From positions 10,284-74,283 of the forward strand of contig CAYGYR010000004.1 in NCBI GenBank assembly GCA_964354285.1: 64,000 nt of DNA. Direction: 5' to 3'. A program made the translations under genes and the position numbers. This DNA is from an uncultured Methanosarcinales archaeon (lineage in GTDB: Archaea; Nanobdellota; Nanobdellia; Woesearchaeales; ARS49). The notes under the pieces were generated by a model. That model searched no databases and was not told the DNA's origin. It was given only the letters and a program-made list of their open reading frames with translations. This document shows, piece after piece, positions 1,338 through 51,808 of the stretch; position 1 is the stretch's first letter, and each line of letters opens with the position of its first letter.

Positions 1338-1345
1338 CGCAGGAA

Positions 1346-3601: not shown

Positions 3602-3611
3602 GCAAATATCC

Positions 3612-3842
3612 TCACTTCAAAAATTTCTTAATCTCTTGAGCTGTTAAGACCTTGCCGCAAGAGACAATCTTTCCATTAATCCCTAAAGCAGGAGTCAGCA
3701 TTATGCCTGCGGCAACAATCTTTCCAATATCTGTGACTTTTATAATCTCTGCCTTAATCTTAAGTTCCTCAACAGCTTTCTTTGCATTTGCTTCAAGCTG
3801 CTTGCATTTCAGACAACCATTTCCAAAAATTTCAATTTTCAT
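3612..3842 (-). CDS. small thioredoxin-fold redox-active disulfide protein
   Basis: 76 aa, MKIEIFGNGCLKCKQL CxxC at the N-terminus, typical glutaredoxin-like MTH895/TM0996 family layout. Confidence 0.8.
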   Translation of the reverse strand: MKIEIFGNGCLKCKQLEANAKKAVEELKIKAEIIKVTDIGKIVAAGIMLTPALGINGKIVSCGKVLTAQEIKKFLK

Positions 3843-4141
3843 TTTTTCACCTCACAGCAAACTTGCCATATTTTGCCTTTTGAACTGCCCAATGCATTGA
3901 ATATATCACAAACCCTGAAATCTTTTATTGAATAAAGTATCTTCTTGCCATCCCTTCTAAACTTCAAAACACCTGAATCAACGAGTTTCAGAAGATGCAT
4001 AGATGTATTAGACTGAGTCCTGTTAATCAAAGAAGGGATTTTACATGCGCATTTCTCTCCTTTAAGAAGAACTTTGACTATTTTATACCTTGTTTCTTCA
4101 GAGAGCGCTTTCAATAAAGTTAAATCTTCTTTCATGGACAT
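3839..4141 (-). CDS. ArsR/SmtB family metalloregulatory transcription factor
   Basis: wHTH with EETRYKIVKVLLKGEKCACKI (CxC metal site in helix 3) and SMHLLKLVDSGVL recognition helix; 4-nt overlap with the downstream gene. Confidence 0.85.
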   Translation of the reverse strand: MSMKEDLTLLKALSEETRYKIVKVLLKGEKCACKIPSLINRTQSNTSMHLLKLVDSGVLKFRRDGKKILYSIKDFRVCDIFNALGSSKGKIWQVCCEVKK

Positions 4142-4170
4142 ATCAACAAATACTGATATGTCATATATAA
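4139..4170 (-). promoter_or_regulatory. arsR operon TATA box plus inverted-repeat operator candidate
   Basis: CATATCA-N8-TGATATG inverted repeat (4139-4160) overlapping the arsR ATG, with ATATATAA box at 4163-4170 about 25 nt upstream on the minus strand. Confidence 0.45.
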
Positions 4171-4267
4171 AGTTTACTAAACTTGTGTAAAGAGGTGAAT
4201 ATTTGCTTTTTAGTTAATCCGTGATTCTTTCCAAAGCTTTAAAAACATCTTTCGTTTGCATAGATGT

Positions 4268-4903
4268 ATGATTATTTTCAAGATGATCAAGGATGTGCTC
4301 ATAAGGCCTTCTTATTTTTTTGAAAGGATTGAGAAGCAAAAAGGAATATCTAAAGCATTTTTCTATTTTGCAATAATTTACTTATTTTACACAATCATTC
4401 ACCTGATATCAGGATTTTTCTTTTTGAAGTATTATTCAGGCATATTAACTAATATCTGGGGATCTGTATTGCCTTCATTGCTTCCTCAGCCGCAAATGAC
4501 TTTTTTCACACTCTTTTTGTTTCCTTTGCTGAACTATATTGCAGGGCTTTTGATGATTTTTGTTGCTGCAGGCCTGCTTCATGTCTGGATTTATATTTTC
4601 GGCGGAAGGGCAGTGTTTGAAAAAACATTCCAATTACTTGTTTACTCAAGCACGCCCATGTATCTTTTAGGCTGGATTCCTTTCCTGAGTTTCTTGGCAC
4701 AGATATATTCCATAGTTCTTCTTGTGATTGGCACTCAGAAGCTTCATAAGCTTTCGCTGGCAAGGTCAATTCTTATTTATGTGATACCTTTTGCAGCAAT
4801 GGTTCTGCTTGTATTGTTTAGCATGGGTCTTGTGATGTATTTCGTTGCATCTAATCCAACACTAATCCAGCAGGCTATTGTAAATCAGCCAATTATCGGC
4901 TAA
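4268..4903 (+). CDS. Yip1-domain membrane protein
   Basis: N-terminal IRPSYFFERI segment followed by 5 TM helices, Yip1/DUF1282-like; ATG at 4268 sits 30 nt from TTTAAAAA box at 4238. Confidence 0.55.
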   Translation: MIIFKMIKDVLIRPSYFFERIEKQKGISKAFFYFAIIYLFYTIIHLISGFFFLKYYSGILTNIWGSVLPSLLPQPQMTFFTLFLFPLLNYIAGLLMIFVAAGLLHVWIYIFGGRAVFEKTFQLLVYSSTPMYLLGWIPFLSFLAQIYSIVLLVIGTQKLHKLSLARSILIYVIPFAAMVLLVLFSMGLVMYFVASNPTLIQQAIVNQPIIG

Positions 4904-4956
4904 TCAGCAAAATTCAATAAAAGCATTTTTAAACAAGTAAAATAAGAGTGTTTATC

Positions 4957-5181
4957 ATGAAAGGATACGAAGTTAAAGTGCCAACATGGTATGCAATGAT
5001 TAACCTGCTTGTTGTAGGAGCATTTGCAGTATTGTTCTTGTATTCTGCAGTGAATTTTCTTGACAAGCCAGTTGGGATTATGTTTTTAATTGTATCAATA
5101 CTGTTCATGTTTTTCTTCCTCGGGGTGTCAATCTATGTTGTAGCAAAAGGAAGATACCCTATGAGCTTCAGGCCAAGATAA
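4957..5181 (+). CDS. small two-TM membrane protein (hypothetical)
   Basis: 74 aa, two hydrophobic helices; ATG 31 nt downstream of TTTTTAAA box at 4926. Confidence 0.45.
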   Translation: MKGYEVKVPTWYAMINLLVVGAFAVLFLYSAVNFLDKPVGIMFLIVSILFMFFFLGVSIYVVAKGRYPMSFRPR

Positions 5182-5184
5182 TTC

Positions 5185-5970
5185 TTATTTTTTCAATTCT
5201 TTCCCAAAAACATCTTCTCTAAGAATCCTGTCCAGTTCAGTATAATCTGGCTTTTTGACAGGAGAATCAACTATCCACTTATTCAAGTCTTCAAGCTTTT
5301 CTGCGATAAAATTGTCCAAAGCAGAATCATGAGAGCCCATGCCAAGCTCCTGTCCTGAGATTTTTTCTTCAAACAGCTTGTTGATTGCAGAATATACCCC
5401 AGAATCAAGCTTCAGTCCATTGGCAACATCCATGAACTTGACAGGCGGAGTGCTGTCTTTTGACTTTATCCAGTCAAGGCAGAGCAGTGGCCTTAGGACA
5501 TAAAGGTATTTTTTCCTGAGCACCTCTGGCTTGTCTTTGATGTAAATCTTGAAGTTTCCCTCTGCCATGTGAAGGTAATGATAAGCGCTTGCCCTGTTGG
5601 AATAATGGTTTGCAACATACTTTCGCATGCTTTCTGCTGCAGTCCCTTTTTCTATGTAGACAATCGGTGAGAAGAGCCATTCCATCAATGGCGGGTTTGA
5701 TTTGGCTAGCAAATCCATTGCCTTGAATATGTCCCAGCCACCAAAATCAAGGTCTTTTTCAATAGGAACGTCATCTGCATCAATCACATCCCTTTTCTTT
5801 TTCACGGAAACATAATCTGCAAGAGGCCTCTTGAAGATAAACCTGCAGTCCCAGTCACTGTCTTTAGAGGCAAAGCCCCATGCCCTGCTTCCAGACTCTA
5901 CTGCATAAATGACTGTGACATTAAATCTCTTTTCAATTTCCTTTATTTTCTCAAGGATTGCTTCTTTCAT
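5185..5970 (-). CDS. Pol-beta superfamily nucleotidyltransferase (COG3541-like)
   Basis: GSRAWGFASKDSDWD matches the G[SG]-x9-D-x-D NTase motif; start moved to 5970 (MKEAILEK), 29 nt from a TTTTTAAA box. Confidence 0.7.
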   Translation of the reverse strand: MKEAILEKIKEIEKRFNVTVIYAVESGSRAWGFASKDSDWDCRFIFKRPLADYVSVKKKRDVIDADDVPIEKDLDFGGWDIFKAMDLLAKSNPPLMEWLFSPIVYIEKGTAAESMRKYVANHYSNRASAYHYLHMAEGNFKIYIKDKPEVLRKKYLYVLRPLLCLDWIKSKDSTPPVKFMDVANGLKLDSGVYSAINKLFEEKISGQELGMGSHDSALDNFIAEKLEDLNKWIVDSPVKKPDYTELDRILREDVFGKELKK

Positions 5971-6061
5971 GCACCTACTTAGCAGGTGTTTGTTTAAAAA
6001 GTTTGGCAAAAAACAGGCTTTTCCGCAAATCTGTATTTTTTCTCATTCTGGCGTAGTAAGA

Positions 6062-6069
6062 TTTATAAA
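6062..6069 (+). promoter_or_regulatory. TATA box (TTTATAAA) for the 6094 gene
   Basis: Palindromic TTTATAAA 32 nt upstream of the ATG at 6094. Confidence 0.5.
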
Positions 6070-6093
6070 TAAATCTATCTGCCTTGGCAGATT

Positions 6094-7479
6094 ATGGCAA
6101 AACATCGTGAAGAAGACGCAGATGATACTGATTCTGCTGAAGAAAATACAGAGCCTGAGACAAAGAGAAAGTACAGAATAACGCACAATCTTGCTGATGG
6201 CGGAATAATTGCTTTAAGGAAAAATATCCAGAGAAAACTATACGGCAGGCCTGGCGAGGAAAAGATTTCTCTTGGCATGGTTAACAAAAAGGGGGATGCT
6301 GGCATTTATTTAACTGCAACAAAAACAGAGCTAGCAGACATAATTAAAAAATTTGAAGAACGGGCAGCTGACTGGAGCTATAATAACCCGCATTTTGCTT
6401 TTGAAGAAGTTGATGAAGAACCAGAGGGGATAATCCCTGGCGAGGATTTGGACAGGATAGAAGCTGCTCTTGAAAGCGGTGTTGTTGAAGAAAGAAACAG
6501 GCAGTATGTGGAAGTAGGCTCGCTAAATGCAAAATTAGATGCAGCGAAAAAAGAAATCACTGGGCTTGAAAACAAGTGCAAGGACTTTGATAGCCAGAAC
6601 ACAAAACTGACTTCTGCGTATGATGCGCTCAAGGAGCAGGTTACAGCGCTGAAGAAAATTCAAGAAACATTGAAGGCAGGCAACTTAACAGATTCGCTTA
6701 TTGCATTCCTTAAGACCCGGGCAGAAAGCCTGGAAACACTGGATATGATACTGCAGGAACTGAAAGAATCTGGGCTTGATGTCATGTTCATTTTAAACCC
6801 GCCTGAAAGCGCTGAAAAATGCGCAAGAGACAAAGTGATGGGGCAATTTAAAATAGATTACCAACAGCTGCTGTCCAACCTAGAGCTGGGAAAGATTGAC
6901 GCCTGGCCAAAATGCAGCTTTTACCAGCCAGAGTCAGAGATCGCGGATGTCAAGCAAAAGATACAAGGGCTGCAAAAAGTAATAGATTCTGCTGACCCGC
7001 ACGTGAAACAGATTGTTGAGGAGAGCCTGAAAAACAGCATCGGGCAATTTAATGAAGCGCTGCACGCTTACCAGTTAAAATTAGAGAACTGGGAGACTGC
7101 GCACAAAGTATCTGCCATGTATCATGCATCTGTGGCTGAATTCCAGGAATCTATTGCAAAAGCAAAAAAGCTCCAGTCCCTGCCTGCAGATGTCAAGCTG
7201 ACAAAGGTGCCTGTATTCGTGCAATACGAAACAGACTGCGCCGCCCTTTACACGCCAGTTGAACAAGGCATTGCATATGAATCATTGAAAAAAGCAATAG
7301 ACAGGCACGCAAAAATAGTAGCAGAAGAGTGCCTGGGCAAATGCATGCTGGTAAAAATAGCTGCAAAAAATGGCGACGAATGGAAGCCGATTGAAATCCT
7401 GAAATGCATAAAAGAATCTTACCTGTCAACAGAAGCTGGAATGCTGGGCAGCAAATTAGGATTGATTGTGCAGTTATAA
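6094..7479 (+). CDS. acidic coiled-coil protein (hypothetical)
   Basis: 461-aa ORF, acidic N-terminus, long heptad-like K/E/L/Q stretches; no catalytic motif seen. Confidence 0.6.
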   Translation: MAKHREEDADDTDSAEENTEPETKRKYRITHNLADGGIIALRKNIQRKLYGRPGEEKISLGMVNKKGDAGIYLTATKTELADIIKKFEERAADWSYNNPHFAFEEVDEEPEGIIPGEDLDRIEAALESGVVEERNRQYVEVGSLNAKLDAAKKEITGLENKCKDFDSQNTKLTSAYDALKEQVTALKKIQETLKAGNLTDSLIAFLKTRAESLETLDMILQELKESGLDVMFILNPPESAEKCARDKVMGQFKIDYQQLLSNLELGKIDAWPKCSFYQPESEIADVKQKIQGLQKVIDSADPHVKQIVEESLKNSIGQFNEALHAYQLKLENWETAHKVSAMYHASVAEFQESIAKAKKLQSLPADVKLTKVPVFVQYETDCAALYTPVEQGIAYESLKKAIDRHAKIVAEECLGKCMLVKIAAKNGDEWKPIEILKCIKESYLSTEAGMLGSKLGLIVQL

Positions 7480-7500
7480 GTTCTCGCTTGCCGCAAAACC

Positions 7501-7508
7501 TTTATAAA
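7501..7508 (+). promoter_or_regulatory. TATA box (TTTATAAA) for the 7531 gene
   Basis: TTTATAAA exactly 30 nt upstream of the ATG at 7531. Confidence 0.5.
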
Positions 7509-7530
7509 CGCTTCCAACTTTTTAAATTAC

Positions 7531-8205
7531 ATGGCTGGACAAAAATCATTAGACATTTATCTTATCAGGCATGCTGAAAGCATAATGAATGTTGAGCATC
7601 CAGAGCTGATAAATGGAAGATCAAACGAGAGCCCGCTTTCTGACTTAGGAAGAATACAGGCAGGCAAATTAGGGCTGTATCTTGCTGCCGAAGAAGTGCA
7701 TTTTGACGAGGTATATTCCTCGCCTGCTGTCCGGGCTATCGGCACTGCAAACCTGGCTTGCTATTATGTCAAATACCCGCTTGAAAAAATTGTTGTTTGC
7801 GATGAGCTGCAGGAGCAGTCGCAGGGTGACTGGGAAGGAAAGCCAAGAGCGCCTTTGTATACCCCTGATGTTATTGCCGCAATGAATTCTGACAACTGGA
7901 ACTTCAAGGCGCCAAATGGGGAGTCACAAAAAGATGTTGAGGAAAGAATGCTGGAATGGGTAAATGATAAGCTGCTCCCAAGATATGAGCAGGGATTGAC
8001 CGTTGGTGTTTTTAGTCACGGAATGTCAATAAGATGCTTCTTCCGCGGCATAATGGAGTCTTCTCCAAAAAATACTTACAAGATAGAGATTGACAACACA
8101 GCCATAACAAGATTCAGGTATGCAAGAAACGGATGGCACCTTGTTACATTAAATGACACAACGCATCTTACTGGAATGAAAAGCAAGCCGTCACCTTATT
8201 TTTAA
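7531..8205 (+). CDS. histidine phosphatase family protein (phosphoglycerate-mutase-like)
   Basis: IYLIRHAES (RHG-type catalytic motif), later SHGMSIR second His motif. Confidence 0.85.
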   Translation: MAGQKSLDIYLIRHAESIMNVEHPELINGRSNESPLSDLGRIQAGKLGLYLAAEEVHFDEVYSSPAVRAIGTANLACYYVKYPLEKIVVCDELQEQSQGDWEGKPRAPLYTPDVIAAMNSDNWNFKAPNGESQKDVEERMLEWVNDKLLPRYEQGLTVGVFSHGMSIRCFFRGIMESSPKNTYKIEIDNTAITRFRYARNGWHLVTLNDTTHLTGMKSKPSPYF

Positions 8206-40473: not shown

Positions 40474-43362
40474 ATGGAAACTAAAGAAGAAAGTAAGATA
40501 ACTGTAATGGAGAAGCCATACAAGGCAGAAGAGATAGAGACAATACTAAACCCAACTGTAAAGCAATGGTTCTTCTTCAGATTCAAGGAGTTCTCGCTTC
40601 CGCAATTATACGGAGTGATGGAGATACACAAGCGAAAAAACATACTTGTCTCAGCACCAACAGGAGCAACAAAAACACTCACAGGATTCTTATCCATACT
40701 TAATGAATTAGTTGATTCAGCTGAAAAAGGAATACTCCAAGACAAGATTTACTGCGTATACATCTCTCCATTAAAAGCATTGAATAATGATATCCAGAAA
40801 AATCTCAAAGAACCATTAGAAGAAATAGAAAAAATAGCAGGCAAAAAACTAGGCATAAGAGTTGCTGTAAGGACAGGAGACACAACAGCTTCTGAAAAAT
40901 CAAAGATGCTGAAGCATGTTCCGCATATCTTAATCACAACACCAGAATCACTATCCATAGTTCTCTCATCAATCAAGTTCAGGGATCACCTAAAGAATGT
41001 AGAGTGGTGCATAATTGACGAAATACATGCATTGGCTGAAAACAAAAGAGGAACACACCTCTCATTATCCCTTGAAAGATTAGACTACATCTCTGCTCAC
41101 ATGTGCAGGATTGGGTTATCAGCAACAGTCGCTCCTTTAGAAGAGGTTGCAAAATTCCTTGTCGGGCCAACAAGAGATTGTGAAATAGTTGATGTGCAGT
41201 TCATAAAAGAAATGGATTTGCAAGTGATTAGCCCTGTTGAAAATTTAATAGACACAACTCATGAATCACTGCACTACAAAATGTATGAGTTGATTGATGA
41301 ATTAATCCAAGCGCACAAGACAACTTTAATCTTCACAAACACAAGAGCTGCAACAGAGAGAGTCGTAGACCACCTCAAAAATAAATTCCCAACAAAATAC
41401 GCAAACAATATTGGTGCGCATCATGGAAGCTTAAGCAAAAGGCACAGGTTACTGATAGAAGAAAGCCTGAGAAAAGGAGAGCTAAAAGCAGTTGTCTGCT
41501 CAACATCATTAGAATTAGGAATTGATATTGGTTACATTGATCTCGTCATCTGTTTAGGCAGCCCGAAATCAGTCGCAAGATTCCTGCAAAGAGCAGGAAG
41601 AGCAGGCCACAGGCTGCATGAAAAAGTCAAAGGAAGAATAATAGTCATGGACAGGGATGACTTAATCGAGTGCGCAGTCCTATTAAAGTCAGCTGTTGAA
41701 AAGAAAATAGACAAGCTTCACATACCAGTAGGAGCTTTAGATGTTCTTGCGCAAACCATTGCAGGAATGGCTTTAGAGCAAGTGTGGGATGAAAAGGAAT
41801 TATATGAAACCATAAAGAAAAGCTACTGCTACAAAGACCTTGACAAAAAAGATTTCAGTGAAGTCCTGGACTATCTTGCTGGAAAATTTGTTGACCTTGA
41901 AGACAGGCATGTCTATGCAAGAATCTGGAGAGACGAAGGAAAGATAGGAAAAAGAGGCAAGCTTGGCAGGGTCATTTACATGACAAACACAGGAACAATC
42001 CCAGACGAAAGCTTCATCACAGTAAAAATAGGGGAGCAGGCAATTGGAAAACTAGATGAGGCATTCCTTGAAAAGTTAAAGCCAGGAGATGTATTTGTTT
42101 TAGGCGGAGATACTTACATGTTCAAGTTCTCAAGAGGAATGGTAGCTCAAGTCCAGGCATCAAGCAGCAGGCCTCCAACAGTGCCAAGATGGGTATCTGA
42201 AATGCTTCCACTAAGCTTTGACTTGGCATTAGAGATAGGGCGGCTAAGAAGATTGATGTTTGAAAGGTTCAATGCAAAAAAATCAAAAGTAGACATACTC
42301 AACTGGCTCCATGAATACCTGTATGTTGATGCAAAAGCAGCAAAAGCAGTCTATGAATACATGAGAGAGCAGTATGATTATGTAAAGCAGATACCAAATG
42401 ACAAGATGATTCTTATTGAGCACTATGACGATGACAGGCAGAAAAAAATAATATTCCATTCCCTGTTCGGAAGGAGAGTAAATGACTGCCTCAGCAGGGC
42501 AGTTGCATATGCAATCTCAAGAAACGAGCACAAAGATGTAGAGATGGGAATAAATGACAATGGCTTCTACATAACAGGAGACAAGAAAATAAACGCAGTG
42601 CGGGCGCTGAAGCTTTTGAAAGCAGAAAAGCTTGACATGATCATGAGGCTGGCAATAGAAAACTCAGAGGTTTTCAAAAGAAGATTCAGGCACTGCGCAA
42701 CAAGAGCATTAATGATTTTAAGAAATTACATGGGGCATCAGAAAAATGTCGGAAGGCAGCAGGTAAGCTCAATGATACTGATGTCTGCCTTGAAAAGAAT
42801 AAGCAATGACTTCTCAATCCTAAAAGAGACAAGAAGAGAGGTTCTAGAAGACCTTATGGATATTGGAAGCACAAAAAAAGTAATCAAAGGAATAGAAGAT
42901 GGTAGCATAAAAGTGGTTGAGATAGATACAAGAATACCAACTCCGTTTGCCTTCAATTTAGCAATCCAAGGATATGCTGACATAATGAAAATAGAAGACA
43001 AGCACGAATTCCTCAAAAGAATGCATGAAATGGTCCTTGTAAAAATCGGATTAAAAAATCCAGAAGCTGAAATAAAATCAAAAATAACTCAAGTGAAAGA
43101 CTACAAGGAAATATTTGATGAAATAGAGCAAAAGCAATTGACGGAAGAAGAGCAGAAGCAGAAAGACTTGAAGCGAATGGTCTGGGGCCTAAAAAGAGTC
43201 CCAATGTTTGCAAAAGACGAATTAATCAAATTAATTGATGGAGACAAAGAAATAAGGCAGGATGTAATCAGCTCAATTGATAGATACAAATCAGAGATAA
43301 AAAAGACCTGGCCAAAAGAGCTTCAGGAGTTTGTTTTTAAGAGGATTAAGGAAATAAGCTAA
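40474..43362 (+). CDS. lhr: Lhr-family ATP-dependent DEAD/DEAH-box helicase
   Basis: SAPTGATKT, IIDEIH, LSATV, LELGIDIG, QRAGRAGH, plus a long C-terminal DEAD-associated region; 962 aa. Confidence 0.93.
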   Translation: METKEESKITVMEKPYKAEEIETILNPTVKQWFFFRFKEFSLPQLYGVMEIHKRKNILVSAPTGATKTLTGFLSILNELVDSAEKGILQDKIYCVYISPLKALNNDIQKNLKEPLEEIEKIAGKKLGIRVAVRTGDTTASEKSKMLKHVPHILITTPESLSIVLSSIKFRDHLKNVEWCIIDEIHALAENKRGTHLSLSLERLDYISAHMCRIGLSATVAPLEEVAKFLVGPTRDCEIVDVQFIKEMDLQVISPVENLIDTTHESLHYKMYELIDELIQAHKTTLIFTNTRAATERVVDHLKNKFPTKYANNIGAHHGSLSKRHRLLIEESLRKGELKAVVCSTSLELGIDIGYIDLVICLGSPKSVARFLQRAGRAGHRLHEKVKGRIIVMDRDDLIECAVLLKSAVEKKIDKLHIPVGALDVLAQTIAGMALEQVWDEKELYETIKKSYCYKDLDKKDFSEVLDYLAGKFVDLEDRHVYARIWRDEGKIGKRGKLGRVIYMTNTGTIPDESFITVKIGEQAIGKLDEAFLEKLKPGDVFVLGGDTYMFKFSRGMVAQVQASSSRPPTVPRWVSEMLPLSFDLALEIGRLRRLMFERFNAKKSKVDILNWLHEYLYVDAKAAKAVYEYMREQYDYVKQIPNDKMILIEHYDDDRQKKIIFHSLFGRRVNDCLSRAVAYAISRNEHKDVEMGINDNGFYITGDKKINAVRALKLLKAEKLDMIMRLAIENSEVFKRRFRHCATRALMILRNYMGHQKNVGRQQVSSMILMSALKRISNDFSILKETRREVLEDLMDIGSTKKVIKGIEDGSIKVVEIDTRIPTPFAFNLAIQGYADIMKIEDKHEFLKRMHEMVLVKIGLKNPEAEIKSKITQVKDYKEIFDEIEQKQLTEEEQKQKDLKRMVWGLKRVPMFAKDELIKLIDGDKEIRQDVISSIDRYKSEIKKTWPKELQEFVFKRIKEIS

Positions 43363-43700
43363 AGAATCTTATACGCCTCAGCATGCCTTCTCAACAGAGT
43401 ATTGTTCCTTACATCTTCTTTTGTAAGAATTCTCTTTACAACCCAATACTCTCCTGTTATTGAATTCCTCTGCATATAACCAAAATTAATAAGTTCCCTT
43501 CTCAGAAGAGTATAATCATCAAAATATTGCTTAATTATATCAGTTACTTCCTGTTCTTTATATTTCCTGTTGTCTTCAAACTCTTTTAGCAAGACAAGAA
43601 GGACTGCTTGCTTCTCAAAATCATTCCTTGGAAAATTCTTGTGCTTAACACACTTCTTGAAGAACTCTTCTGTGTCAAAAGGAAATTTGATTTCTTGCAT
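43359..43700 (-). CDS. DUF2087-like small regulator
   Basis: YKEQEVTDIIKQYFDDYTLLRRELINFGYMQRN resembles the DUF2087 core. Confidence 0.6.
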   Translation of the reverse strand: MQEIKFPFDTEEFFKKCVKHKNFPRNDFEKQAVLLVLLKEFEDNRKYKEQEVTDIIKQYFDDYTLLRRELINFGYMQRNSITGEYWVVKRILTKEDVRNNTLLRRHAEAYKIL

Positions 43701-44747
43701 TCACTCGCTCGCATAAAGATTTCTTGTCAATCTATGGATATCAACAATGTCAGAGAGCATTGCCTTCAGCTTTGCGACTATCTGGGCAATCTCTATTGTT
43801 TTGTTCTTAAGGAAGTATGCATCAAGAGAATCAGCTATCTCCCCCCTGGTTAGCATGACAGAGCATTCTGATTTCTTGGTATAATACAAAGTCATTGTTG
43901 TGCAGTATTCCTGGTAAATCCTCTCAATCAATTTTTTTAATCCAGGAAGGTCTGCATTCTTTTTCTTCTTCACAATACTCAGGATTCTCGCAATCCTTTT
44001 TGCCTGGTCTGCAACCTTCTCAATCCTTATCTGAAGCTCCCAGTAGCCAAGTGCCTCAAGATTAGAGATATGCAGCGCCTGCTTCACAGACGGATCTGTG
44101 AAAGCAGTCTTGAGTATCTTGAGAATCAGGAAGGTTATCCTGTTCACATCAAAATCCCGGTTGACTATAAGCTCGTGAATATCATCCCCCGTGGTCATGT
44201 TAATCGTATCAAGAATCATAGACCTCGTTATGTTATCAATGCGCCTTGTGAGCTTGTCAAGCGAAACTGTCTTTATGTCAATGAAGCTGTCTGCAACAAG
44301 CTTTGTCGATGACTCGTCCACAATCTCGAGCGCAAACAAGCCTGCAATCTCTTTTTTTATAAAATCAAGATGCTTTGGAATGTCTTTTCCCTTGAGAACA
44401 ATGATGCTGTAAGGATTAAGATACGCAGAGACAAGCTCCCTGTGGATGCAGTGCTGCTCTTTATTATCTACATTTATGACAATTTCCTTCTGCTGGACAG
44501 TAGATGCCTGGTATTTTGTTGATACGACAAGCTCATTATCCCCTTTTTCCTCTATGTAGAGCTTGTCACCTTTCTTGAGCTTGTTCCTTTCAATCCAGTC
44601 CTTTGGAATCGCAACTGTGTAAGATGCCTTTCCTGATTTTACTATTGTCCTGACGTCCATATTCTCAGGGAGAGGCGGCTTGCTTATAAAACTTTCGTTC
44701 TGGACTGTATAAAACGTGTTTTCTTCGCTCTCTAACGTGTTTTCCAT
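43701..44747 (-). CDS. AbrB/SpoVT-PhoU fusion regulator (archaeal phosphate-uptake-regulator type)
   Basis: ASYTVAIPKDWIERNKLKKGDKLYIEE AbrB-type N-domain followed by two PhoU-like helical repeats. Confidence 0.8.
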   Translation of the reverse strand: MENTLESEENTFYTVQNESFISKPPLPENMDVRTIVKSGKASYTVAIPKDWIERNKLKKGDKLYIEEKGDNELVVSTKYQASTVQQKEIVINVDNKEQHCIHRELVSAYLNPYSIIVLKGKDIPKHLDFIKKEIAGLFALEIVDESSTKLVADSFIDIKTVSLDKLTRRIDNITRSMILDTINMTTGDDIHELIVNRDFDVNRITFLILKILKTAFTDPSVKQALHISNLEALGYWELQIRIEKVADQAKRIARILSIVKKKKNADLPGLKKLIERIYQEYCTTMTLYYTKKSECSVMLTRGEIADSLDAYFLKNKTIEIAQIVAKLKAMLSDIVDIHRLTRNLYASE

Positions 44748-44780: not shown

Positions 44781-45530
44781 TTAAAAAAAAAGATCGTCTT
44801 TCACGCTCTGCAGGATTGTATAAACCACTGCTTTTTTTGCCTGCCCTTTTGAAAGGTATTCAAGTGCAGTCTCCTGTGTATTCTTGTTTGCATTCGCAAA
44901 ATAGATATCTGTGGCAAGAAGATACTTCAGGTCACGGATATTCCTTGCATTAATCGCAGTTTCCTTGATCTTGTTATACTTGAACAATGAAAGGTATTTC
45001 TCAGTAACAAGCTCGCAAATCGGGCTTGGCTTCCTGAACTCATAAAATGCATCATCCCGCACCTGCGAACGATGGTTGCTCTGCGTCATCATCTCAAAAA
45101 GCGCATCTTTTCCTGTATCTTCAGGAGCTGCGACCATACTCTCCATCGCAGTCTGCATAAGCTGGAGGGCAAAATACTGGCTGAAGCGCTTCATGCTCAT
45201 CTTTTCAATGTCATATTTCTCTTTCCTGCAGCCAGTTATCTCAACCAGAACATCAAAAAGAATTGTCTTCTTGATTGAGTCATCACTTGTGTTGGCATCA
45301 ATTTTTGCGCGCCTTATAACGTCAACATCAACAAAAGTGTCAAGCAGGCAGGATTCAACAGGGTCAAGGGCGCCATAGTAGTGGGCTTTTGGCGAATAAT
45401 TCTGCCCGATAATGTATTTTACCTTGTCCTCGTATGTCCTAAAGCGCTCCTGCTTCTCACGGGCAGCCTGCTTTTCCTCATGCGTTTTGGCTTCTTCTGA
45501 AACCAGCATGCATAAATCAACTTCTTTCAT
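44781..45530 (-). CDS. alpha-helical hypothetical protein, last gene of the Ubl/E2/JAB/E1 operon
   Basis: ATG at 45530 follows the E1 stop as TAAGATG with AAGGTGGT SD; ORF-track start 45548 also possible; no motif recognised. Confidence 0.55.
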   Translation of the reverse strand: MKEVDLCMLVSEEAKTHEEKQAAREKQERFRTYEDKVKYIIGQNYSPKAHYYGALDPVESCLLDTFVDVDVIRRAKIDANTSDDSIKKTILFDVLVEITGCRKEKYDIEKMSMKRFSQYFALQLMQTAMESMVAAPEDTGKDALFEMMTQSNHRSQVRDDAFYEFRKPSPICELVTEKYLSLFKYNKIKETAINARNIRDLKYLLATDIYFANANKNTQETALEYLSKGQAKKAVVYTILQSVKDDLFF

Positions 45531-45531
45531 C

Positions 45532-46980
45532 TTAACCACCTTTTGCATAGAGCTTTCCCATCTTCCTCAGCCATGCCGTGTAAAAGTCCTTTGGCTTTGT
45601 ATGGCAGTCACATGCCCCTCTTGAGCCAAGCATTCCAATGCGCACAGGTTCTGTGCTAATGTACTTCAAAATACCCCTGATTGGCTCCCCATATTTGTGG
45701 CTCTCAAGCACTGCGCCTGCCTCATTCACAATCATTCCGCCAACAATCTGGTTGCTTATGATGACACTCGGCTCTGCAGCATGAATGCAGCGCTGAGGCT
45801 TGAAGTTCTGCAGGGCAAGATCATCGATAGTGAGCTGGCACTGCAGGCAGCTTGTCTTTCCAGGGACATACACAGTTGCCTGCCCTGACTTGAAATCAGT
45901 GCCGCCGCTGATCAATGGAATCTGCATGGTGCGTGCATAATAATTCAGCAGTGCCCTTGTCTTGAAATTGTCAACACTATCTATGATTAAAGCAGGCCTG
46001 TTTGCTTTCAGGTATTTGCCAAAATTCGTGCCTACACGATTAAAGCTATACTCCCACTCCATGCCTGGATTGATTTTCTTAAGCTTTTCAACAAGCGCCT
46101 CTGCCTTGCGCTTTCCAACAGAGTCATAGAACAGCACCTGCCTGTTAAGGTTGGTCTCCTCAACAATATCATCATCAAAGATTGTTACCTTGCTTGCGCC
46201 GCGGATTGCGAGCCCAAGCCCAACAAAATTCCCAAGCGCGCCAGCACCAACAAGCACTACATTGCCATTGTTCTTCTGCGTTTCAGCAGGCATCTCCATA
46301 TTGTTTGCATAGCCTGTCCTTTCCTTTGAGAGCAGATTATATGAAACAATCCTGTCAAGAGGCCTGTCATTCAATGGCATGATGAGCTTTCTTGCCTCGT
46401 CAGCAACCAGGCCGCCAATCACCATGCTTGTCGCAGCGCTCTGCTCTTTTGCCCTGTATTCAGGAAAAAGATACTTTTCATCAAGCCTGCCAAGCGAAAC
46501 AGCAATCTCGCTGCTTTCAGCAGAGCTGGCTGCTGATATCACAGGCTTTCCGATTCTCTGCCCGTAATCAAGCGCGATGAGCTTTGAGCACGGGTCATTT
46601 GTGCAGTCAATAATCAGGTCAAGGCCGCCGAGCAGGCTTGCCTGGCTTGCGTAATCAAAGCTGATGCTAATTCCTTTCACATCAACTGTGGGGTTTATCT
46701 TCTTCAGCATGTCCTCAAGAGATTTTGCCTTGCTGCTGCCTTTTCTTGACCAGGAGCAAAGAAACTCCTCTCTGTTCTTAGGGTCTGCCCTGCCAACGTC
46801 GTATATCTCAATGTGGCCAAAGCCAAGGGCAGTGAGGGGAAGCGCAACAAACTGCGCAAGAGAGCCTGACCCAATTATGCCAACCCTTGCATTCTCAAGC
46901 AGGGCCTGGTTCCAGCCCTCAATCCTGTTCTGCCTGTCATACCTTGCGATTTTGCTTATTTCTGGGAAGATTGCTTGCAT
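45532..46980 (-). CDS. E1-like activating enzyme with tandem ThiF/MoeB Rossmann domains
   Basis: Domain 1: RYDRQ..VGIIGSGSLAQ but KNREE instead of NLNRQ. Domain 2: VLVGAGALGNFVG..FDDDIVEETNLNRQ..IDSVDNFKTR..CLQC..RCIHAAEP..CDCH. GGAGGTGGAGGA directly before the ATG. Confidence 0.88.
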   Translation of the reverse strand: MQAIFPEISKIARYDRQNRIEGWNQALLENARVGIIGSGSLAQFVALPLTALGFGHIEIYDVGRADPKNREEFLCSWSRKGSSKAKSLEDMLKKINPTVDVKGISISFDYASQASLLGGLDLIIDCTNDPCSKLIALDYGQRIGKPVISAASSAESSEIAVSLGRLDEKYLFPEYRAKEQSAATSMVIGGLVADEARKLIMPLNDRPLDRIVSYNLLSKERTGYANNMEMPAETQKNNGNVVLVGAGALGNFVGLGLAIRGASKVTIFDDDIVEETNLNRQVLFYDSVGKRKAEALVEKLKKINPGMEWEYSFNRVGTNFGKYLKANRPALIIDSVDNFKTRALLNYYARTMQIPLISGGTDFKSGQATVYVPGKTSCLQCQLTIDDLALQNFKPQRCIHAAEPSVIISNQIVGGMIVNEAGAVLESHKYGEPIRGILKYISTEPVRIGMLGSRGACDCHTKPKDFYTAWLRKMGKLYAKGG

Positions 46981-49895
46981 TCCTCCACCTCCGCAATTGC
47001 TTTTGCGAATTTTTCAAGAACAGCATCAGGGTCTTCAGCGCCATTGCTGCGGTACGCATTCACGAAATCCACCAGGAACTCCCTCAGCTGCTGCTTTTTT
47101 CCAGGCGCAATAAAGCAGGTCAAGTCAAGCAGAAGCTGGTTTGCAATCATTTTCTTGTCTTTTTCTGTATAAAAGTAGTCAGTGCTCCATTCCAAGTCTG
47201 ATTTGAGCTCCCCTGCTGACTTAAGCGCACTGTCAAAGGCCACAAACTTTTCAGGCCCTATTATGTCTTCAAGGACGCTTCCTGCCCATGAGCAATATTT
47301 CCTCTTGCATGGCTTCTTGTCAAAGCACCATCCTTCCATTGTGTAATCAGATACTGCTTTGGCAAATGCATTCGCAGCCATTGAATCGCGGGCAAATTCA
47401 GTCATCTGGCCATAAAACTCTGGAATCTTCTCTGGCTTGAAGCCGGCAATGAATTCAAGGAACAGCCTGTCCTTTATCTCTGCCTCAGATGGCTTGCCCT
47501 CGCTGCACCAGTCAAACCGCTTCCTGACTTCATCTTCTATCGCAACATTTTCCTCCAGCACTTTTTTTGTGCCGTCAGCCAGTGCCTTTTTAAAAGGCTT
47601 CTTGATATCATCCTCTTTCTTGCCTGCCAGCTTTATGAGGAAGCTGCCAAGCCATGCAGCATATTCCCCGCCATTGAACATGTATTCTTTTGCTGACTGG
47701 AAGAAAGAATCAAAAATCCCGCCATACACCTTTTCAAATATCTCCTTGCGCTCTTTCTCTGTCGGATCAAAGCTTGGCTTTGCAGGAACAAATTTGTGCT
47801 CATAGCTGCTGTGTTTTGCCGCAATATGCAGGTCTTCTGTAACTGCTCCTGGCATTGCTGCCCTTGGGCAATCATAAAAATCCCAGTCAACCGCGTGTTT
47901 TGCTTCTTTTTCATTGCCCTCTGCTTCTTTCTTGAAATATTTCTCAAGAACAGAATCTTTGTCTTTTTCTTTAAGGAACTCTGCCACAAACTGCCTGAAT
48001 TCAGCGCTATTCAAGAGCTCAGCAGATGCCTTCTCAAGCATCTTGTCCCTCCCCCAGCTATTATAGCTGGGCCTTTTAAGACTGGATTTCTTGAATGTTT
48101 TCAGGTTGCACCTGGCTGCACGCAGGAAACTATCGCCGCGGCCAGTATATCCGTGCTTGAAATCCTGGAATGTGTCGACAGCCCACTCGTTATACTGGTA
48201 TGGCTTCTTGTCTGCATAGCTGTCTTCTATGTACGCAGTGAATGCATCAAGAAAGTGCTCTGCAAGCCCAGAAGCGTTTTCATTTTGCTTTGTGATATCT
48301 TTCCTGACAAGCGCAACAAGAGGGTCATCGCTGCCATTCTTTTCTGGCTTTTCTTTAATTATCCTTACAGGAATCTTCACAGCACTATCTTTCTTTTTAT
48401 CTTCAGCATCTGCTTTTTCTGATGGCTTTGCTTCTTTTTTTTCAGGGGGCTCTTCATTTTCTTCAGTATCTTCTATTTTTGCGCTTTTGTATTCATTTAA
48501 TGCATTGATGGCCTTCACTTTTTCTTTTCCATCAATAAATCCCTCTACGAGCTGGCAGAGTGTCTGGCTTTTTGACAGCTCTTCAGCAAATCTGGGGACA
48601 AATTTGCGCCTGTGCTTCTCTTTGGAGTAGCTTATGACGAAATATGTTTTTGCGCTGTTTGCGAAATTAATTGATTCAACAAAATCTCTCTGGTCTATTA
48701 TGTAATTCGTGAAGACCCTGTTAAGCCACTTCCGTGAGGCTTCTTTCTGGCTATTGTCTGTGATATACTCTTTTGCAGCTTCATAGAACTGCTCTGCAAG
48801 CTTGCTGAAATCAGAAGGCTTTTCTTTCTCTTCAGCAGACTTCTTTGCTTCTTCTTCTTTTTCTTCTTCTGCTTTCTGCTCCTCTTTCTTTTCCAGCTCT
48901 TCCTGCTTTTTTCTTTCTTCCTCTGCATGCTTCTTGTCTTCCTCTACTTTCTTCTCATATGCTTTTTTCTTATGCTCCTTCAGGCTGTTTAGCTCTTTCT
49001 CAATCTTTTCATTGATTGAGTCAACTGCATCAGGCTTTTTGCTGTCTCCGCAAAACCAGCCGACAACATAATCAAAAAAGTCAAACCAGCCCCAGCGCCT
49101 TGCATCCTTCGCCTTGGAGACTGCGATTTTTGTCACAGGCGCGTATCTCCCGACCTTCAGTTTCTTATAGACTTCGTCTTCCATCAGCTTTGCATCAATG
49201 CTGACATCAGTCTCAATTTCACTTAGCATGAAGCCCGCTGCTTTTTTTGGATTCTTAAGAACCCACTTGTTGTCAGGCCCAAGCTCTTTTGCCTGCACTT
49301 CAGTATAGACATCGCCCAGTATATTAACGACAACAGAGTATGCCCATGAGCTGGAATTCTTTTTCTTCACATCAGCATCTTTCAGGTGCTCTGCGTTTAT
49401 TGCATAGCCTCCCAGGTCAAGCTTTCCGTTTTTTACAAGGTCCTCAAGCTTCACGTCTTCGTATTCTGTCTTTAAAGTATTTGGTGCAACAGAGTGCACG
49501 ACTGTCTCGAAATTATTAACATCTGTGCCTGAATGGAACACGCCAAAGCGTGCGTGAGAATGCCACCATCCAACAATCTTGTAGCCTTTTGGATCAACTG
49601 CTTCAGCAGCCCTTACAACATCCTCACCATCAATTTTACAGTACCCGCCTGAATATACCTGGTTGTCTGCAAGATATGCGTCAACAACAAGGTCTGTATC
49701 ATCATCTTTCATTGCAAGCAAAAAGCCATAGCACTCATTTGCAGAGCCAGTTATCCTCTCAACAAGCCTCGCGTATGTCTTTGCCTTTAGCAATGCGCCA
49801 GGAGTTATGTTCACTTTCGCAGGCCCTGCCTCTTTTTTAGCTGCCTCCTTTATGGAATACGGCTTTGAGTTCAATACTTCATCAAGATTAAACAT
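46956..49895 (-). CDS. giant JAB/MPN+ (JAMM) metalloprotease-domain protein
   Basis: ANECYGFLLA (Glu) and HSHARFGVFHSGTD (HxHx7Sx2D) at 49521-49562; K/E-rich linker; about 600-aa helical C-terminal region; TAATG junction with the E2-like gene, GGAGGTG SD. Confidence 0.85.
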   Translation of the reverse strand: MFNLDEVLNSKPYSIKEAAKKEAGPAKVNITPGALLKAKTYARLVERITGSANECYGFLLAMKDDDTDLVVDAYLADNQVYSGGYCKIDGEDVVRAAEAVDPKGYKIVGWWHSHARFGVFHSGTDVNNFETVVHSVAPNTLKTEYEDVKLEDLVKNGKLDLGGYAINAEHLKDADVKKKNSSSWAYSVVVNILGDVYTEVQAKELGPDNKWVLKNPKKAAGFMLSEIETDVSIDAKLMEDEVYKKLKVGRYAPVTKIAVSKAKDARRWGWFDFFDYVVGWFCGDSKKPDAVDSINEKIEKELNSLKEHKKKAYEKKVEEDKKHAEEERKKQEELEKKEEQKAEEEKEEEAKKSAEEKEKPSDFSKLAEQFYEAAKEYITDNSQKEASRKWLNRVFTNYIIDQRDFVESINFANSAKTYFVISYSKEKHRRKFVPRFAEELSKSQTLCQLVEGFIDGKEKVKAINALNEYKSAKIEDTEENEEPPEKKEAKPSEKADAEDKKKDSAVKIPVRIIKEKPEKNGSDDPLVALVRKDITKQNENASGLAEHFLDAFTAYIEDSYADKKPYQYNEWAVDTFQDFKHGYTGRGDSFLRAARCNLKTFKKSSLKRPSYNSWGRDKMLEKASAELLNSAEFRQFVAEFLKEKDKDSVLEKYFKKEAEGNEKEAKHAVDWDFYDCPRAAMPGAVTEDLHIAAKHSSYEHKFVPAKPSFDPTEKERKEIFEKVYGGIFDSFFQSAKEYMFNGGEYAAWLGSFLIKLAGKKEDDIKKPFKKALADGTKKVLEENVAIEDEVRKRFDWCSEGKPSEAEIKDRLFLEFIAGFKPEKIPEFYGQMTEFARDSMAANAFAKAVSDYTMEGWCFDKKPCKRKYCSWAGSVLEDIIGPEKFVAFDSALKSAGELKSDLEWSTDYFYTEKDKKMIANQLLLDLTCFIAPGKKQQLREFLVDFVNAYRSNGAEDPDAVLEKFAKAIAEVEECKQSSQK

Positions 49896-51367
49896 TAATC
49901 CCACCTCCGTTGTTCTTGGTTCTTGCGTATCTTGACAATATTTTTATTAAAGACAGGAATGTTGTTTTTTTGGATGCGCTCTTCTGAAATCACGTAATCC
50001 CCGAAATGATAATCATCAAGATTTGCCATTGGCGTATGATGTGACATGTCGAAATAGCCCTGCAGAACCACTCCTTTTGCATCAGAAAGAAAAGTCAGCA
50101 CGCTCTCTAATGAAGGAAGCCTTCTTGTGCGCTCATAATCATAGTTTCCTAAGCAAATACGCCCGTTAACTGCATTTAAGCCAGTAAAAGGATGCGGGTA
50201 ATTTCCAAGGACAATTGGGTCCTGCACATAAATTCCATTCCCATCATTTACCAATTGAACAGCAATCTTTCCTTTTTTGAACAGGTAATACTTGCCGTTA
50301 TGCGGGCTCTGAAGCGCATACTGCTCAGGCGTCTCGACATAGACATAATACTTGTTATCCTTTTTCAGGAATCCCACGCCTGATTTTTCATAATTATTTG
50401 ACTGAAGAATCTCCCTTAATGCCTGCCTTTCTTTTTGAGCTTCTGTAAGCGCAGCTGACTGGACGCCATTATTCCTTAATGCATCTATCTTGAACTTCTT
50501 TGCAAGCCTGCGCACATAGCTCTGGTATATTTCAGGCATCTGCTGGTGGGACCGCTGAAAGCTGAACTTTTGGGCGCCTATGAATACGGAAACGCCGTTC
50601 TGCTCCTTTGCTTCTGGAACAAGGTCATAGACACGCCCCCCGAAAATGGCAATAGAACCATGCAAAAGGCTTCCAAAAACAGAGCTGTCTGTGCTGTCCT
50701 CCTCTTCGAGCAGTGTTTTTCCAGGGGCATACTCCTGCAGGATGCTGATAATCTGGTTCTCTGTTTGTTTGCTTCTGGCAGGCATGTAATTAACATTGCC
50801 ATATTTTGCTCTTAAGAGATCCTCGATATTTCCTGCTTGCTGCGGGGCCTTTTCTGCCTGCTGCGCACAAAGCTCAGAGTCTAAATACTCTTTCTCAACT
50901 TTTCTTATCAACTTTTCAATGATTGCATTGTTTTCGCGTATGTCAATGTCAGAAACAGCGTCGCTAAGCGCGGCCTTAGGCGCTTTTTCCTGCGCGCCTG
51001 CTTTCACGCCGAGCAGATCCTTTATCTCCTTCTCCTCATATGCCCGCGTCAGCGCAGGAAGAACGTCTCTCACAATAAAAGAAAGAACTGCATTCTCTTC
51101 AAGAGCTCTTTTTGCAGCATCATTCTCCTTTACTTCCTTCTTGATTGTTGCTTCCAGAAAAGACTTCTGAAAATCCGCTATTTCCTGCTTTGCGCGTTCG
51201 AGAAAAATATTTTCATGAGTCCCAATGTCATCAAGCTTTGCCAGGCTCAGGCGCTTGCTGTAAGCCACAAGGCACCCGTCTTCCTGCCTCTCCCCAACAA
51301 CATAGATTTTCCCGTTGTGGAATATCACAGGATCCCACTCAAGCAAAAAATACGGCTTTAGCTCCAT
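49895..51367 (-). CDS. E2/UBC-like protein with large N-terminal extension
   Basis: C-terminal YPHPFTGLNAVNGRICLGN (50147-50194) resembles the HPN-x8-11-G-x-I-C-L E2 active-site signature; GGAGGG SD. Confidence 0.55.
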   Translation of the reverse strand: MELKPYFLLEWDPVIFHNGKIYVVGERQEDGCLVAYSKRLSLAKLDDIGTHENIFLERAKQEIADFQKSFLEATIKKEVKENDAAKRALEENAVLSFIVRDVLPALTRAYEEKEIKDLLGVKAGAQEKAPKAALSDAVSDIDIRENNAIIEKLIRKVEKEYLDSELCAQQAEKAPQQAGNIEDLLRAKYGNVNYMPARSKQTENQIISILQEYAPGKTLLEEEDSTDSSVFGSLLHGSIAIFGGRVYDLVPEAKEQNGVSVFIGAQKFSFQRSHQQMPEIYQSYVRRLAKKFKIDALRNNGVQSAALTEAQKERQALREILQSNNYEKSGVGFLKKDNKYYVYVETPEQYALQSPHNGKYYLFKKGKIAVQLVNDGNGIYVQDPIVLGNYPHPFTGLNAVNGRICLGNYDYERTRRLPSLESVLTFLSDAKGVVLQGYFDMSHHTPMANLDDYHFGDYVISEERIQKNNIPVFNKNIVKIRKNQEQRRWD

Positions 51368-51409: not shown

Positions 51410-51808
51410 CTAAATTTTGTACTCCAGACCTCCTTCCTGGACACTTGCGACTGCTATCTCAGCAAGGCCATACTGCACCTTGTTGCCGTCCTCAAGATCC
51501 TTGTTTTGAGGCTTGATGTATTTCTCAAGAATCTCTTCTTTTATCTTCTCTGCAGTCACAGAGTCAACCCCATTAAGCATTATGACGTATTTTCCTGTCT
51601 TTTTCATCTCCTGCTTGATGGAGTCTGCAATGCTCCTCTCCTTGTCGTCCTTCAGCTGGTCTGGCCTTGTCGCATACTTTATTGCGTCGTCCAGCGACTT
51701 CTTTTCCAGCTCAGGGGGAATTCTCCTAACGATTGCTTCCTTTGACATTCCGCCCCTGACACTAATTATCTGCGGTATATCGACCGCAACTGCTTCTTCT
51801 TCTGGCAT
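51410..51808 (-). CDS. ubiquitin-like modifier candidate (Gly-Gly plus 5-residue tail)
   Basis: 132 aa from ATG at 51808 (GGAGGT SD, 7-nt spacer); ends ...ASVQEGG-LEYKI; C-terminal about 55 aa have a beta-grasp-like alternation; first gene of the operon. Confidence 0.5.
   Translation of the reverse strand: MPEEEAVAVDIPQIISVRGGMSKEAIVRRIPPELEKKSLDDAIKYATRPDQLKDDKERSIADSIKQEMKKTGKYVIMLNGVDSVTAEKIKEEILEKYIKPQNKDLEDGNKVQYGLAEIAVASVQEGGLEYKI

Follow-up and report, generated by a model that had tools for sequence, protein, structure and literature searches.

The Long JAB Gene and Its Operon

The window analyzed here is a 64,000-nucleotide stretch of DNA from a small DPANN (Woesearchaeota-type) archaeon. 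It was found that an operon on the minus strand, where all the features given with coordinates below lie, contains a gene for a JAB/JAMM protein of 979 residues (46956..49895). The ORF is open throughout, from its ATG at 49895 to its stop codon at 46956-46958. The preceding gene (49895..51367) encodes an E2-like protein of 490 residues; its TAA stop codon overlaps with the start codon of the JAB gene (TAATG), and GGAGGTG lies upstream of this junction. The next gene encodes a tandem-ThiF E1 (45532..46980; two ThiF stretches, E 2.6e-58), whose ATG lies 25 nt inside the 3′ end of the JAB gene and is preceded by GGAGGTGGAGG. The overlaps at these two junctions suggest coupled translation. Upstream of the E2-like gene, a 132-residue Ubl candidate is encoded (51413..51808), which has a weak ThiS-like NCBIfam match (E 0.0012). 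Since it ends with GG-LEYKI, it needs processing, and it is the presumed substrate of the JAB protein.

The order of the Ubl, E2-like, JAB, and tandem E1 genes is that of bilA-bilB-bilC-bilD (PMC10557695). As in the Bil systems (PMC10557695), the JAMM protease is encoded third like BilC, the E1 combines two adenylation-type domains in a single chain, and the reactive glycine of the Ubl is followed by extra residues for the JAB protein to remove. Unlike in bacterial Bil systems, the host is a DPANN archaeon, and neither the E2-like protein nor the Ubl matches a PADLOC Bil profile even at E values up to 5, although distant relatives may escape such profiles. The E2-like protein has a stretch (HPF...IC.GN) conserved in six relatives, and no family match was found for it in Pfam and PADLOC. 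Since the E2-like and Ubl calls rest on motifs and weak matches, the operon is described here as Bil-like and is not placed in Bil. The fifth gene of the operon encodes a protein of 255 residues, the operon is directly followed by an AbrB/MazE-type gene, and no RING, HECT, or RBR gene is recognizable in the operon.

Is such a long JAB gene an assembly artifact? Eight full-length homologues (926-974 residues, 48-79% identity) were found in separate assemblies and span the full length of the protein. Thus, a fusion of the JAB domain and the C-terminal arm by assembly error was ruled out. No convincing separate gene for the C-terminal region was found elsewhere, the short matches being only fragments of 189 and 65 residues. 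The preliminary description of this ORF as a JAMM protease with a charged spacer and repeated helical modules gives the anatomy correctly.

The JAB Domain and the Charged Spacer

The JAB domain is an enlarged one spanning residues 1-296 (49008..49895), with its Pfam core (PF14464 and PF01398) at residues 26-135 (nt 49491-49820). Prok-JAB PF14464 matches residues 51-133 with a score of 33.8 bits (cut-off 25), and JAB PF01398 matches the protein at 23.2 bits against a cut-off of 22.5. The JAMM site (E54...H112-S-H114-x7-S122-x2-D125) is intact and invariant in all nine family members, and the catalytic motif is also kept in a wider JAB alignment. The boundary at residue 296 agrees with the size of the arm-less JAB relatives, about 296-318 residues. 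Thus, the JAMM core previously placed at residues 50-200 or so is present, but the domain is about 296 rather than about 150 residues in size. As judged from its sequence, this N-terminal part looks like an active JAMM zinc metalloprotease, and protease activity is predicted.

The solved sequences closest to the JAMM core are the Caldiarchaeum Rpn11-like protein 6fjv (E 2.8e-4) and Rpn11, and more broadly MPN+ proteases of the Rpn11, CSN5, and BRCC36 type (E 2.8e-4 to 0.01), although the match is confined to about 100 residues of the core. Like the present protein, the MPN+ proteases have C-terminal helices, with which they dock into larger assemblies; however, these helices are short and have no detectable similarity to the modules described below, and the neighborhood of the JAB gene encodes no partners from the proteasome lid or the signalosome. 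In PADLOC, the best match of the JAB domain was a weak one to BilC (PDLC03846, residues 39-128, E 5e-4, 17.7 bits), with a score comparable to those of generic CBASS JAB profiles. While BilC is a small single-domain protein (profile of 168 positions), the 979-residue protein has a JAB domain of about 296 residues, a spacer, and four modules. HvJAMM1 and the SAMP desampylases, which are archaeal JAMM proteases removing a ubiquitin-like modifier, are small, single-domain proteins of about 133 residues and act with an E1 only and no E2 (PMC4443979). The present protein resembles HvJAMM1 (PMC4443979) in being an archaeal JAMM protease with predicted Ubl removal. Its match to the NCBIfam desampylase family is weak (E 0.0023; 17.8 bits, far below the cut-off of 130).

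The JAB domain is followed by a K/E-rich spacer at residues 297-359 (48819..49007), which the preliminary description had located exactly. Of its residues, 71% are charged and 9.5% hydrophobic, with opposite-charge i/i+4 pairs at 20 of 59 positions, and its length among homologues varies from 33 to 63 residues. The composition and the variable length fit the role of a spacer. ER/K single alpha-helix (SAH) spacers occur in myosin VI/X and caldesmon. Like them, the K/E stretch is a long segment dominated by E and K, in which hydrophobic residues are nearly absent, is modelled as an unbroken helix, and differs in length between homologues. Unlike in those spacers, the helix is a predicted one, AF2 giving a single uninterrupted helix over residues 291-346 at low to moderate confidence (about 50-66). 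The stretch is probably an ER/K-type single alpha-helix, while it may alternatively be a coiled coil or a disordered linker.

Modules of the C-Terminal Arm

The rest of the protein (residues 360-979), here called the arm, is all-helical in AF2 models, and no Pfam family matches it above cut-off. Four modules are supported: M1 (residues 362-472, 48480..48812), by hhalign to M2 and by the M2 HMM; M2 (residues 541-658, 47922..48275), by hhalign to M1 and M4 and by AF2; M3 (residues 722-835, 47391..47732), by its match to the first module of two-module relatives; and M4 (residues 838-968, 46992..47384), by hhalign to M2 and by the M4 HMM. The opening helices, which had been described as similar and as belonging to modules about 110-170 residues apart, were located at residues 366, 544, 727, and 840, although the spacings (178, 183, and 113 residues) are slightly wider.

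Are the modules true repeats? Self-BLASTP of the 979-residue protein detected no internal repeats. Profile comparison, in which hhalign was run on module sub-alignments of nine homologues, revealed significant ones between M1 and M2 (E 5.9e-8, 103 columns) and between M2 and M4 (E 1.1e-4, 118 columns), with control comparisons of the JAB domain and a module at E 0.06-0.46. The M2 HMM also detects M1 (iE 0.013-0.04), and the M4 HMM picks up the final module in the relatives L016 (iE 0.012), L021 (iE 0.003), and L024 (iE 0.02). M3 resembles the other modules in the opening helices alone (E 0.002-0.005; only 32 columns at E 0.005 with M1) and matches the first module of two-module relatives (E 1.3e-4, 95 columns). 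M1, M2, and M4 are clearly homologous, while M3 is a different or much more diverged type. Since M3 is the counterpart of that first module, the arm is best described as three A modules and one B module. The four repeated modules originally proposed are thus real as repeats but are not four equal copies.

In the nine-member family, 44% of the columns are invariant in M3, 40% in M4, 19% in M1, and 5-10% in the linkers; the values for M3 and M4 equal that of the outer JAB domain. The sequence comparison indicates that the conserved core of the arm is the M3-M4 (B-A) pair and that M1 and M2 are additional A copies. In the charged linker between M1 and M2 (residues 473-540, 48276..48479), A505, P509, and V510 of the short motif A-V-K-I-P-V-R-I-I-K (residues 505-514, nt 48354-48383) are invariant, and the linker is elsewhere unconserved. 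To read this motif as SIM-like is speculation. The invariant cysteines of the arm are isolated (C447 and C868), C868 lying in the M4 motif K-Y-C-S-W.

The AF2 model of M2 (residues 538-662, from the module alignment) has six helices, with a pLDDT of 77.8 and a pTM of 0.75; the full-length model is of low quality (pLDDT 42), also over the JAB domain and M3-M4. No solved fold matched the module (Foldseek best E 1.1, VIA best Z 3.9), and nothing was found in Atlas. The A/B module is a previously undescribed, lineage-specific helical domain of about 115 residues, with six helices in the M2 model.

The module was found only together with JAB proteins. Among 668 locus ORFs, all the matches lie within JAB proteins, and the HMM finds full-length modules in the distant L014, which was left out of its building (iE 3e-5 and 1e-4). 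In the window's own genome, no ORF scored below E 0.5, and a search of its 4404 ORFs gave a single background match (iE 0.08). Of 301 genomes from the same order, 8 contain the module, and all five new matches are in frames with an N-terminal JAMM motif. One of these five extra genomes, G144, is unpublished. In a database of 5.8 billion clusters, the 12 longer module proteins are all JAB proteins: 11 have a Pfam JAB annotation, and the twelfth (P0014, 944 residues), which is without a precomputed Pfam entry, is the JAB protein of L014. Among 1.84 billion representatives, only the protein's own family was matched. Individual matches in distant relatives are modest (iE 1e-5 to 0.1). Wherever a match was of sufficient size to be judged, it was located C-terminally in a JAB protein. 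In summary, this "JAB-arm" module of about 115 residues occurs repeatedly, both in single proteins and across proteins, and it always follows a JAB domain.

Possible Roles of the Arm

The size of the JAB protein differs widely across syntenic operons (about 245-959 residues), while the flanking E2-like and E1 genes keep a similar size, and the arm itself is highly variable in both length and makeup. A part that confers specificity or acts as an adaptor would be expected to show such a pattern.

Does the arm hold the conjugation machinery together? In eukaryotic MPN proteins such as Rpn11, CSN5, and BRCC36, the C-terminal helices join the helical bundles of the lid, signalosome, or BRISC. The arm might likewise assemble the E1, the E2-like protein, the Ubl, and the 255-residue fifth gene product, without binding substrates. 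The tightly overlapping gene junctions, which imply co-expression, the all-helical arm, and the Rpn11-type nature of the closest solved JAB sequences agree with this, and homologues of the fifth gene adjoin long-arm JAB genes in L001, L003, L014 (E 3e-5), and L024 (E 7e-4), although this co-occurrence comes from few loci with weak E-values. However, operons with an arm-less JAB protein have the same Ubl, E2-like, and E1 neighbors, so that the core machine has no need of the arm, and a search with the module HMM detected nothing related in the other proteins of the operon. I regard such an assembly role as possible but tentative.

The arm could also choose the targets of conjugation, as an adaptor between E2~Ubl and the substrate or as a cysteine relay, and thereby replace a missing E3, a possibility raised in the preliminary description. 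Related operons differ in the arm more than in any other part, it carries the invariant C868, and the operon has no recognizable E3 gene of the three types named above. On the other hand, the aligned L014, L016, and L004 modules lack C868, and residues 360-979 have neither a conserved Cys/His cluster nor a Pfam match. I know of no precedent for placing the choice of ligation targets on the enzyme that reverses ligation. Moreover, conjugation in characterized Bil systems proceeds with no dedicated E3 (PMC10557695), so that nothing need be missing. An E3-like arm is unlikely, and the results lend no support to the substitution of an E3.

Since Bil systems are antiviral (PMC10557695) and related operons differ so much in this part, the arm may instead be compared with the variable sensor domains of defence systems; it would hold the protease inactive or off its substrate as long as no signal, for instance a viral protein, is bound. 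The AbrB/MazE-type gene directly downstream would fit such a role. However, PADLOC finds only generic E1 and JAB matches in the neighborhood and no recognized defence genes, no viral link was seen, and the arm is strongly conserved rather than diversifying within the family. A sensory or autoinhibitory arm is therefore very unlikely.

The reading that I prefer, with a probability of roughly 0.55, is that the protein is the Ubl-maturing and deconjugating protease of the Bil-like operon and that its arm is a docking site for partners or substrates. Acting like BilC, HvJAMM1, and Rpn11, the JAB domain would trim the five residues after the Gly-Gly of the Ubl (between GG and LEYKI) and would cleave Ubl-target isopeptide bonds. 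The K/E helix (33-63 residues) would serve as a semi-rigid spacer that keeps the protease away from the arm, with M1 and M2 sitting between this spacer and the M3-M4 core. The arm would be a protein-binding platform tethering the protease to operon partners or modified targets, and this tethering would decide where deconjugation happens. A scaffold or recruitment role, as suggested in the preliminary description, is consistent with the comparative pattern, in which the arm is conserved within the family and very variable between syntenic operons.

A bolder and rather improbable extension is that the A and B modules form an unrecognized adaptor family restricted to DPANN, in which the deconjugating enzyme, not an E3, sets target specificity. 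In that case, the E1 and E2 would conjugate broadly, the arm-guided JAB protease would edit the result, and differences in copy number (1-4 modules) would adjust the set of proteins that remain modified.

Complete operons of Ubl, E1, E2, and DUB genes in prokaryotes are now being studied for their antiviral role and as models of how ubiquitin signalling arose, and the choice of targets by such systems, which lack an E3, is a question of interest. The JAB-arm family is rare, with about a dozen proteins in public data. It constitutes a new domain family, which has neither a Pfam entry nor a fold match and can now be annotated in other genomes. One DPANN lineage has repeatedly enlarged its deconjugating enzyme with a private, modular, and well-conserved arm, and this arm is a concrete candidate, open to testing, for an element of specificity or docking.

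The JAB gene and its conservation

The 979-aa JAMM ORF of the preliminary description (46956-49895) lies on the minus strand, and it is open throughout from the ATG at 49895 to the stop codon at 46956-46958. Pfam places Prok-JAB on aa 51-133 of the JAB protein (33.8 bits against a cut-off of 25) and JAB on aa 26-127. The catalytic signature is complete: E54 ... H112-S-H114-x7-S122-x2-D125. It is well supported that the JAB protein has the appearance of an active JAMM protease serving the Ubl of its operon; that it is active I infer.

A K/E stretch follows the JAB domain (aa 1-296) at nt 48819-49007 (aa 297-359), exactly the position first described. Its 63 residues include 23 E and 20 K (71% charged, 9.5% hydrophobic), and its length varies from 33 to 63 aa across the homologues. 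The full-length AF2 model, calculated from a 9-sequence alignment, is poor (pLDDT 42) and was used for the K/E helix and the secondary structure only; in it, aa 291-346 form one continuous helix. Judging from its composition, variable length and modelled helix, the K/E stretch is likely a spacer.

Eight relatives in all, of 926-974 aa and 48-79% identity, were found among 5.8 billion protein clusters; they come from different sources and align end to end. Protease and arm thus form a conserved fusion. The possibility, raised at the outset, that the C-terminal region had been joined to the protease by an assembly error is ruled out by these eight full-length homologues. The family is rare. Two full-length copies (L001 and L002) and one partial copy (L003) were found on metagenome contigs. 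When one genome per GTDB species was scanned with the close-family alignment, no close relatives appeared, and a wider JAB alignment was needed to find related loci in genomes. No papers on this JAB protein family were found in the body of literature searched.

Repeated modules of the arm

Are the four modules of the preliminary description true repeats? The four opening helices quoted there start at aa 366, 544, 727 and 840. Self-BLASTP detected no internal repeats in the JAB protein, whereas hhalign comparisons built on sub-alignments of the nine homologues revealed them. Thus, the repeats are visible at the profile level only. M1 (360-480) aligned with M2 (535-665) over 103 columns with a probability of 94.7% and an E-value of 5.9e-8, and M2 aligned with M4 (836-979) over 118 columns (E 1.1e-4). 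M1 and M3 aligned over the opening 32 columns only (E 0.005), and the control comparisons of the JAB domain with any module gave E-values of 0.06-0.46. An HMM of M1, M2 and M4 detected two full-length modules (iE 3e-5 and 1e-4) in the 959-aa JAB frame of L014, a locus that was left out of HMM building and belongs to a different genome of the same order; searched against the ORFs of the window's own genome, the HMM gave nothing below E 0.5. The single-module HMMs detect one another (iE 1e-3 to 0.04) and also find the last module of the related loci L016, L004, L021 and L024. The aligned modules have in common an opening helix pair, F-x3-A-x2-Y ... K-Y-x2-W, and a closing helix pair, F-x3-F ... 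K-(D/E) ... (L/I)-E-K-(Y/F).

M3 matches the profile of the other three modules (A-type) over the opening helices only (E 0.002), which rules out four equal repeats. It aligns over 95 columns with the first module of the two-module relatives L016, L004, P0016, L024 and L021 (E 1.3e-4). The proposed repetition therefore holds for the homologous M1, M2 and M4, but M3 is not an equal copy. In my reading of the sequences, the architecture is JAB, K/E helix, A (M1, aa 362-472), linker, A (M2, aa 541-658), linker, B (M3, aa 722-835) and A (M4, aa 838-968). The B-A pair (M3-M4) is common to the shorter relatives, and in this lineage M1 and M2 precede the pair as additional copies of A. Conservation by region agrees with this architecture: invariant columns make up 63% of the JAB core, 43% of the outer JAB domain, 44% of M3, 40% of M4, 22% of M2, 19% of M1, and 5-10% of the K/E stretch and the linkers. 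A short conserved motif, A-V-K-I-P-V-R-I-I-K (aa 505-514, nt 48354-48383, minus strand), in which A505, P509 and V510 are invariant, lies in a charged linker that is unconserved elsewhere. Speculatively, the motif could be compared with a SIM-like hydrophobic core that forms a beta-strand and has charge on either side.

Family and distribution of the arm module

The arm has no Pfam family, no sequence relative in the PDB (an EntV match at E 0.1 was taken as noise) and no usable match in the ESM Atlas. Modelled from the module alignment, M2 comes out as a six-helix domain (pLDDT 77.8, pTM 0.75). It has no convincing solved counterpart (best Foldseek PDB E 1.1, best VIA wide Z 3.9), which does not prove a new fold. 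The arm module is a new, lineage-restricted domain family.

Every module match large enough to judge is on a JAB protein. An exhaustive HMMER search of 1.84 billion representatives with the arm profile found its own family and one 65-aa fragment only. The broader module profile, A4, has matches in 8 of 301 genomes of the same order. Five matches had not been used for A4, and each of them falls in an open frame (571-887 aa) whose N-terminal part has a JAMM motif, with altered spacing in one frame. One of the five genomes (G144) is unpublished, and the remaining four suffice for the claim of JAB linkage. When A4 was run on the 5.8-billion-cluster database, the longer matches were 12 proteins, every one a JAB protein; 11 carry a Pfam JAB annotation, and no precomputed Pfam entry exists for the twelfth (P0014, the L014 protein). 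A single short match, the 189-aa P0017, is near-identical to the C-terminus of an L004-type JAB protein. It might have been a standalone arm gene, but its start lies inside the L004-type JAB sequence, and P0017 is thus most likely a fragment of such a protein. The retrieved loci comprise 668 ORFs, of which only JAB ORFs have module matches; with the module HMM, neither the E2-like nor the fifth-gene proteins gave a relative.

In related archaea with syntenic operons, the JAB gene product is about 245-347 aa (no arm), 400-712 aa, or 887 and 959 aa in length, while the sizes of the E2-like protein and the E1 are steady. Other arms are unrelated in sequence to the present one: a K/E coil with N/K-rich repeats in L032, a P/G-rich tail in L030, and a different tandem repeat in L015. 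The L015 contig (G024:C5), from a Nanoarchaeota MAG whose genome belongs to the same family as the window, has two adjacent giant JAB-like frames on the plus strand (562-4791 and 4822-7917; 1410 and 1032 aa). Their arms consist of the tandem repeat (e.g. ALETTLEQLEKQGQDTSRLKDL) and a C-terminal domain common to both, and their metal-site spacing is HxHx8SxxD, not x7. A weak relative of the JAB clade outside DPANN is a 245-aa frame of Candidatus Baldrarchaeum yapensis (L038; 34% identity).

The operon and a proposed role of the arm

Marker genes put the completeness of the 1.43-Mb host genome at 100%. Related loci are recorded under Woesearchaeota and Nanoarchaeota MAGs, both of them DPANN archaea. 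Six contigs of TPA-assembled MAGs with the DPANN-type operon (L022, L028, L029, L032, L034 and L036) are labelled 'uncultured Methanosarcinales archaeon'; these labels look like taxonomic misassignments.

The tightly packed operon lies on the minus strand and encodes, in order, a 132-aa Ubl candidate ending in GG-LEYKI, a 490-aa E2-like protein with no family match and an HPF...IC.GN stretch common to six relatives, the JAB protein, an E1 with two ThiF-type stretches, and a 255-aa protein to which no family was assigned (44781-45548). The stop codon of the E2-like gene overlaps with the JAB start codon as TAATG (49893-49897), behind GGAGGTG, and the E1 ATG lies 25 nt inside the 3' end of the JAB gene (46956-46980), behind GGAGGTGGAGG. 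Since both overlapping junctions are preceded by GGAGGTG-type Shine-Dalgarno-like sequences, they suggest coupled translation of the E2-like and JAB ORFs and of the JAB and E1 ORFs. Directly downstream of the operon, also on the minus strand, are genes for a 348-aa protein whose N-terminal domain is of the AbrB/MazE type (43701-44747) and a DUF2087 protein (43359-43700).

It is known that the Bil operon has the gene order bilA-bilB-bilC-bilD and that BilC performs both Ubl maturation and conjugate cleavage (PMC10557695). The present operon follows this order, and BilC is the top PADLOC match of its JAB domain. However, that match is weak (E 5e-4), and no Bil profile in PADLOC matches either the Ubl candidate or the E2-like protein. 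Thus, the operon is described here as having a Bil-like layout, with no claim that it belongs to Bil.

What does the arm do? I infer that it is a protein-binding platform, because the aromatic-rich surfaces of M3-M4 are strongly conserved, the module copy number changes and the linkage to the protease is exclusive. JABs that lack the arm work with these same neighbours, an argument for the arm as an accessory part for specificity or docking, not a core subunit. Homologues of the fifth gene lie beside long-arm JAB genes in L001, L003, L014 (E 3e-5) and L024 (E 7e-4); its product is put forward as a possible partner for the arm, in a sample too small for a correlation. It had also been proposed that the arm may substitute for an E3. 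This idea has no direct support: Bil conjugation has no dedicated E3 (PMC10557695), no E3-like domain was recognised in the arm, and the aligned modules of L014, L016 and L004 do not retain C868, an invariant cysteine of M4. The anatomy of the JAB protein is solid; in it, a known enzyme type has been enlarged in a way that is real, conserved and unusual.
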